Part shown: positions 63,063-63,250 of the stretch, piece after piece
Layout of the letters: every line of letters begins with the position of its first letter
Position numbering within the stretch: position 1 is the first letter of the stretch
NCBI RefSeq assembly: GCF_003334335.1
Contig: NZ_QOWQ01000026.1
DNA length: 64,000 nt
Origin: Escherichia coli
Lineage (GTDB): Bacteria > Pseudomonadota > Gammaproteobacteria > Enterobacterales > Enterobacteriaceae
Direction: 5' to 3' (one strand)
The notes under the pieces: generated by a model
Told to the model about the DNA's origin: nothing
Databases searched by the model: none
The model's input: only the letters and a program-made list of their open reading frames with translations
Position numbers and translations under genes: made by a program

Positions 63063-63250
63063 AAATCACTAAAGAACGCCCAAGAGCATGTGTTTTCTTT
63101 AGTAGAATCAAACTCTTGAATTTCCATGTCATATGAAAATCGGCAAAGTTCATATGTAACAAAGTGTCCCAACCATGCCCCAAAATGCCCCACAACAGAC
63201 ATTTTTGTCCCATGCATGCCCCAAAAAAATCACTTCCCCTCACCTTGACA

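Follow-up and report, generated by a model that had tools for sequence, protein, structure and literature searches.

A cluster of short direct repeats at the end of a lambdoid prophage inserted into yecE of Escherichia coli very probably (probability about 0.8) represents arm-type integrase (Int) sites of the phage attachment site, on its int-distal (P) arm. It lies within a stretch of 64,000 nucleotides, referred to here as the window, to which all positions refer unless another locus is named. The original prediction had considered an att arm with integrase arm-type sites, and this reading is supported by the occurrence of the motif on both arms, by conserved offsets and by the presence of a PF12167 domain in Int, from which the binding is inferred.

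The prophage end in yecE

In the window, aspS (60307-62079, minus strand) and yecD (62356-62955) are followed by the first 96 bases of yecE, an unrelated A/T-rich stretch and a dinI-like gene. The yecE (DUF72) remnant, a 5' stub on the plus strand at 62952-63047, was assigned from the list of open reading frames and the RefSeq annotation of identical junctions; it is split by the prophage and forms the B half of the junction. The same 1.1-kb junction was found at an identity of at least 99.0% in nine complete E. coli genomes. In strain S1-CAM-02-A, where the junction region is 99.6% identical to that of the window, it marks one end of a lambdoid prophage of 51 kb. Read inwards, this prophage comprises dinI, an S6-family autotransporter peptidase, a YadA-like protein, tail fibres, J and tail/head genes, and further inward lysis genes, Q, replication genes, a repressor, xis and int, after which the remaining part of yecE follows. 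The int-side junction lies beyond the window and was read from S1-CAM-02-A and JNEC-KY204, the junctions of which are 99.6-99.7% identical over 1.1 kb.

Some features of these prophages are recorded as separate observations. As cargo between tail fibres and dinI, an S6-family autotransporter peptidase (SPATE-like, 1335 aa) and a protein with a YadA C-terminal domain are encoded (L001 21026-27131), and the 3' end of the peptidase gene reaches the window at about 63926-64000 on the minus strand. In JNEC-KY204, the strain closest to the window, the prophage int (L098 7484-8797, NZ_AP045180.1) is a pseudogene with an internal stop, and both att arms are intact. At the int-side junction, RefSeq annotates a full-length DUF72 (yecE) ORF that begins in phage DNA and overlaps the end of int (L002 30231-31001; L098 6732-7502); the phage seems to supply a new 5' end to the interrupted gene.

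Both junctions share the 11-mer TTAACTGCGTG, which contains the crossover region and is located at 63037-63047 of the window and at 30268-30278 of the int-side locus of S1-CAM-02-A (L002). This core identity extends to about 20-21 bp with three mismatches (CCCGCCACTTTAACTGCGTG versus CCCGTCATGTTAACTGCGTG). If the window to the left of the core is joined to L002 to the right of it, a contiguous intact yecE results that is present in 4903 of 5426 complete E. coli genomes. Therefore, the composite is attB and the breakpoint falls inside the 11-mer. In the other 523 of the 5426 genomes no contiguous yecE attB is found, the site being occupied or disrupted in roughly a tenth. The position of the core is in agreement with the 21-bp att of yecE-integrating Stx phages, which was defined experimentally by attP sequencing (Nakamura et al. 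2021, PMC8112680). The junction is thus the counterpart of lambda attR (P-O-B').

The heptamer cluster and its surroundings in the int-distal arm

The int-distal (P-type) arm extends on the plus strand from the core to the −35 element of the dinI promoter (63048-63244) and is non-coding. An alignment of the region to ordinary coding sequence had been named as a result that would speak against an att arm, but no CDS is annotated across it in the six RefSeq genomes inspected. The list of open reading frames shows only short unannotated ORFs there, and a coding function was discarded. A structured RNA was dismissed as well, with no Rfam match at E≤1 in 62900-63700.

Three copies of the octamer ATGCCCCA at 63175-63182, 63185-63192 and 63216-63223, as well as GTCCCA at 63166 and 63207, had been noticed before and are located exactly there. 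The window holds three ATGCCCCA copies on both strands together, all within the cluster; their number alone is unremarkable (2.69 expected in 64 kb). As the repeat unit the octamer was rejected: relatives read GTGCCCCA and TTGCCCCA, conserving TGYCCCA alone, and the base 5' of TG varies among them. The true unit is the heptamer TGYCCCA, for which the repeat finder revealed five direct copies on the plus strand, starting at 63165, 63176, 63186, 63206 and 63217. Spacings of 11, 10, 20 and 11 bp place all five within 59 bp, and the phasing of 10-11 bp is helical. Counting both strands, 19 heptamers occur in the window, and their background frequency is 1.1e-4 per base per strand. When the window was simulated 300 times with a first-order Markov model, no cluster exceeded two heptamers, compared to the five observed. 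The distance of the repeats from the breakpoint, given earlier as 80-180 bp, was refined to 118-176 bp from the core edge, inside phage DNA.

Counted from the core centre, predicted arm-type site 1 (TGTCCCA, 63165-63171) lies at +126 and site 2 (TGCCCCA, 63176-63182) at +137; both coincide with invariant columns in an alignment of five diverged arms. Site 3 (TGCCCCA, 63186-63192) at +147 has a counterpart at +145 in phage Stx2_95. Site 4 (TGTCCCA, 63206-63212) at +167 reads TGCCCCA in five of seven close relatives and is missing from Stx2_95, with a single copy at +160 in the wrbA type; an auxiliary role is possible for site 4. Site 5 (TGCCCCA, 63217-63223) at +178 is likewise missing from Stx2_95. 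All five are on the plus strand. Since phages differ in their number of sites, with five in the window and three each in Stx2_95, Rac and the wrbA type, the pair farthest from the core (63206-63223) may be dispensable.

Between core and heptamers several further elements were found. The A/T palindrome GATTTTTAAAAATC (63054-63067), detected by the repeat search, adjoins the core; it had been placed at the junction itself and is indeed present, though 7-20 bp inside phage DNA. Its inner part ATTTTTAAAAAT is kept in Stx2_95, the A-tract alone is kept in the wrbA-type and Rac arms, and the outermost G is replaced by A in three of seven close relatives. The palindrome may be part of a C' core flank, or a bend or site of a bending protein. 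It is followed by the inverted repeat ACTAAAGAA / TTCTTTAGT (63068-63103) with 9-bp arms that are 18 nt apart. This repeat encloses the block AAGAACGCCCAAGAGCA (63072-63088), the aligned counterparts of which are AAGATCGTCCAGGAGC in Stx2_95 and AAGATCGTCCAAGAGCA in the wrbA type, within arms that are otherwise about 50% identical. The block could be bound by a second accessory protein, or could act on int transcripts running through attP as a sib-like retroregulatory hairpin.

A predicted IHF site, AATCAAACTCTTG (63106-63118, plus strand), matches WATCAANNNNTTR perfectly and is some 70 bp away from the core centre. No other perfect IHF consensus occurs in the 64-kb window, for which 2.86 are expected, and this one falls between core and heptamers. 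In seven homologous arms the consensus positions are fixed and the N positions shift from ACTC to AGCG. On the int side, a match with one mismatch, AATCAGTAAGTTA, is located at −31. The corresponding place in the Stx2_95 and wrbA-type arms showed no match to the IHF consensus.

Downstream of this site, three units of about 10-11 bp, TCATATGAAA / ATCGGCAAAG / TTCATATGTAA, form a direct repeat at 63129-63160 (plus strand). These are tentative candidates for Xis sites, since they are phage-specific direct repeats placed between the bend site and the arm-type sites, where Xis is expected. At the matching position Stx2_95 carries TCGACGAACT TCGACGAATT TCGCCGATAA (TCGACGAAnT three times), and its Xis is 50% identical. 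Judged by this position, the stretch separating the heptamers from the IHF site is probably where Xis binds. Of the IHF and Xis sites assumed in the original prediction, the former are predicted from the perfect consensus between core and repeats, which lends support to an att arm, and the latter are plausible from their position. The inverted repeat CATATGAA/TTCATATG, reported earlier at 63130-63137 and 63149-63156, is present and falls within the candidate Xis stretch. As a palindromic operator it was discarded: with 11 short inverted pairs of this kind in 371 bp it does not exceed background, and its first copy reads CATATA instead of CATATG in three of seven homologous arms.

The arm abuts the dinI promoter (63245-63297, plus strand), which is not part of it. 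The −35 element TTGACA (63245-63250) begins 22 bp downstream of the last heptamer, and the −10 element is AAAAAT (63269-63274). Around the latter, two perfect LexA-type boxes CTGT-N8-ACAG are located at 63251-63266 and 63279-63294, the first of which is described as overlapping the −35 element and spacer. In the window this pattern occurs four times compared to 0.68 expected, the other two copies being at 4801 and 42323. The dinI-like gene (63310-63558, plus strand, 82 aa) is the first prophage gene at this end. It matches NCBIfam NF007893 (DNA damage-inducible protein I) with E=2e-17, a score below the curated cut-off, and is named 'DinI-like family protein' in RefSeq. A terminator-like hairpin, GGGGAGTCGGAAAACTCCCC then CTTTCTGATC (63656-63675), is located about 100 bp 3' of dinI.

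Conservation of the heptamers and the protein that probably reads them

The recurrence of the repeats at the other junction, suggested as a check, was confirmed. In S1-CAM-02-A the int-side arm carries TGTCCCAatgaTGCCCCA in the same orientation at −84/−73, that is 72-84 bp from the core and within the 3' end of int. The int-side junction of JNEC-KY204 is identical over 160 bp, TGTCCCAatgaTGCCCCA included. Overall, five heptamers occur on the int-distal arm, two on the int-proximal arm and none in the core. The heptamer pair in the 3' end of int is also present in all 80 IMG/VR relatives and varies only at Y and in the spacer; these relatives are all close (88% identity or more) and mostly end at the int stop codon, so that they inform on the int-side pair only. 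Those with downstream sequence are all integrated in yecE.

Homologous prophage ends, named as a further check, carry the repeats at conserved offsets, and this extends to distant relatives and other attB sites. At seven close prophage ends the heptamers are invariant except for Y, with the arm 91-93% identical overall, a level at which footprinting within the group resolves little, and the adjacent dinI about 73% identical. More distant relatives were found via their integrase. The window type, represented by PhiR49_2 (Int 99.5% identical, attB in yecE), has int-side heptamers at −84 and −73 and int-distal ones at +126, +137, +147, +167 and +178, all offsets being counted from the core centre. 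In Stx2_95 (Int 76%, yecE) the corresponding positions are −83 and −72 as well as +123, +134 and +145, and in PPwrbA_EH2201 (Int 68%, attB in wrbA) −82 and −71 as well as +129, +140 and +160. The Rac integrase IntR of K-12 (about 41% in the first 100 residues, attB in ttcA) is accompanied by TTTGCCCC variants at −75 and −64 and int-distal sites at +122, +134 and +153. In mEp460 (Int 61% identical), which has an intact attP, one heptamer pair is found in the 3' end of int and another 207 bp downstream. Aligned to each other, five int-distal arms show a mean identity of 46%, and their invariant columns are essentially TG.CCCA....TGCC.C, the heptamer pair. Motif and core distance are therefore conserved across yecE, wrbA, mEp460 and Rac-type sites, regardless of attB and flanking genes. 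A mosaic joint is seen near the dinI promoter if 63048-63558 of the window is compared with loci L003-L008 and L011.

The integrase encoded at the other end of the prophage has 437 aa. Residues 7-70 match the Pfam family Arm-DNA-bind_2 (PF12167) with E=2.4e-23 and residues 202-395 match Phage_integrase; from these domain matches Int belongs to the IntBPP-1 subgroup. An AlphaFold model of the arm-binding domain exhibits three beta-strands and a helix (pLDDT 81). Sequence comparison with the PDB gave matches to the core-binding and catalytic parts only and no solved relative of the arm-binding domain. Across the relatives, conservation of Int is highest in the arm-binding domain (81-91% identity) and lowest in the core-binding domain (48-68%), as expected for a common arm word combined with different cores. 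Over the int-side sites, the C-terminal tail of Int has a protein identity of only 35-48%, and still both DNA heptamers are kept, in two reading frames. As this pair is within coding sequence, its conservation could be partly at the protein level (P..P residues are kept). Taken together, the correlation between word and domain points to Int as the probable heptamer-binding protein.

An excisionase gene adjoins int. The Xis proteins of the relatives are 29-50% identical, and no family for Xis was found in NCBIfam. That the heptamers are excisionase (RDF) sites, on which Xis polymerises along phased direct repeats to bend the arm, is unlikely. The neighbourhood of the two genes would fit, as would the spacing, direct repeats at 10-11 bp being the typical layout of Xis sites, with X1/X1.5/X2 of lambda as an example. 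In Gifsy-1, a lambdoid enterobacterial phage, the P arm reportedly contains three imperfect direct repeats, spaced by 10 bp, to which Xis binds. Characterised Xis sites, however, usually occupy a single arm, where they lie between core and arm-type sites, and the heptamers occur on both arms, at −84/−73 and from +126 to +178. The heptamer is also invariant although the Xis proteins have diverged to the extent given above, and the arm-binding domain of Int in these phages is 81-91% identical. Further, the expected Xis position is already filled by separate, phage-specific repeats (63129-63160 here and those of Stx2_95), which by their position fit the one-arm, Xis-tracking pattern.

The location of the cluster next to dinI would also suit operator or activator sites of a regulator of that promoter, all the more as the third heptamer of Stx2_95, too, lies just upstream of the homologous promoter. 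This alternative, raised in the original prediction as operator sites for an unknown regulator, is nevertheless very improbable. A tblastn search of the available flanking sequence detected dinI in yecE-type loci only and not next to the arms of mEp460, the wrbA-type phage or Rac; hence, the repeats go with int and att and not with dinI. Heptamers are found within int at the far end of the prophage as well, and the dinI promoter already has its two LexA-type boxes. The arm and the gene have also had differing evolutionary histories: among close relatives the arm is better conserved than dinI, and in comparison with Stx2_95 the reverse is seen, with an arm identity of 56% and a dinI promoter identity of 91%. 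Finally, a C-rich word cluster without function, produced by chance or slippage, can practically be dismissed. The number of octamers in the 64 kb would be compatible with chance, but five same-strand heptamers in 59 bp were never approached in the simulations, the offsets are fixed in arms that are otherwise 46-56% identical, and the motif recurs on the other arm.

With arm-type sites as the preferred reading, the following mechanism can be envisaged. Int would act as a heterobivalent protein, its N-terminal arm-binding domain reading TGYCCCA and its core-binding and catalytic domains acting at TTAACTGCGTG. The five helically phased direct heptamers 126-178 bp from the core on the int-distal arm would serve as docking sites, together with the two heptamers of the other arm, which are 72-84 bp away from the core and within the 3' end of int. 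IHF, bound at its predicted site (63106-63118), would bend the arm back in such a way that arm-bound Int reaches the core, and Xis would join at its candidate site. The folded assembly would be the intasome that sets the direction, integration versus excision.

Relation to known systems and significance

The arrangement is similar to lambda attP, which combines the arm-type sites P1, P2 and P'1-P'3 with IHF, Xis and Fis sites. Measured on NC_001416, the arm-type sites of lambda are located at −136 and −106 (the second inverted) on the int-distal side and at +60, +70 and +80 on the int-proximal side, near the int stop codon. Shared features are a short core, a short int-proximal arm with tandem sites, a long int-distal arm, an N-terminal arm-binding domain of Int, an IHF consensus between core and arm sites, and xis beside int. 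In contrast, the lambda word C/AAGTCACTAT differs from TGYCCCA, P2 of lambda is inverted whereas all seven copies described here have one orientation, and the sites are distributed 5 + 2 between the int-distal and int-proximal arms instead of 2 + 3. Unlike in lambda, the int-proximal sites are within the int coding sequence. The arm-binding domain is PF12167 and not that of the lambda family, and Int matches lambda Int weakly, in the core-binding and catalytic part only.

Close counterparts are the yecE-integrating Stx phages (PMC8112680), which share attB in yecE, the core region, a related integrase (intR of Stx2_95, 76%) and the dinI-proximal end. That study defines the 21-bp att identity only, and the word 'arm' is missing from its main text. 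Compared to Stx2_95, the phage of the window belongs to another lineage and carries a SPATE autotransporter in place of stx. The DUF3596/PF12167 arm-binding domain with its three-strand one-helix fold is shared with the IntBPP-1 subgroup (Smyshlyaev et al. 2021, PMC8138268); there, a Stx2a phage integrase is named as a member, and the work classifies proteins and gives no arm-site sequences. In the open-access literature, to which our survey was directed, we found no description of arm-type sites for yecE, Stx, wrbA, 933W, Gifsy, IntR or PF12167 integrases. The repeat layout reported for Gifsy-1 attP/Xis is also the one proposed for 63129-63160 and for the TCGACGAAnT repeats of Stx2_95, which may serve as a lead.

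The architecture is of the standard heterobivalent-integrase type known from textbooks; what is added is the proposed arm word TGYCCCA with its fixed geometry. As the principle is established, the gain is incremental. We propose that TGYCCCA is the missing DNA partner of the PF12167 domain in the IntR/933W-like clade of E. coli. Many Shiga-toxin and other virulence prophages of E. coli, of the yecE, wrbA and Rac types, have integrases of this clade, for which the open literature surveyed gives the short core att only. Arm-type sites make phage integrases directional and controllable. A defined heptamer would allow exact boundaries to be drawn for prophage ends, with a functional attP from about −90 to +180. 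It also provides targets for footprinting and mutagenesis and a starting point for the question of whether Int and Xis functions are shared among co-resident prophages.

Chances are about even that TGYCCCA (TTTGCCCC in Rac) is the common arm word of the whole E. coli PF12167 clade (IntR, 933W-type wrbA, yecE Stx and mEp460), with a geometry of about −83/−72 and +125/+136/+146 whatever the attB, and that co-resident prophages could thereby cross-act. Less firmly, the loading of Int on the P arm, 22 bp from the −35 element, could modulate the LexA-controlled dinI promoter. Co-residence of prophages is common in STEC. If the common arm word holds true, arm domains and sites would be nearly interchangeable, and integrases and excisionases of co-resident prophages could act on each other's sites. 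Such cross-action could affect excision, the rescue of int-defective prophages such as that of JNEC-KY204, and the integration of one prophage into another.
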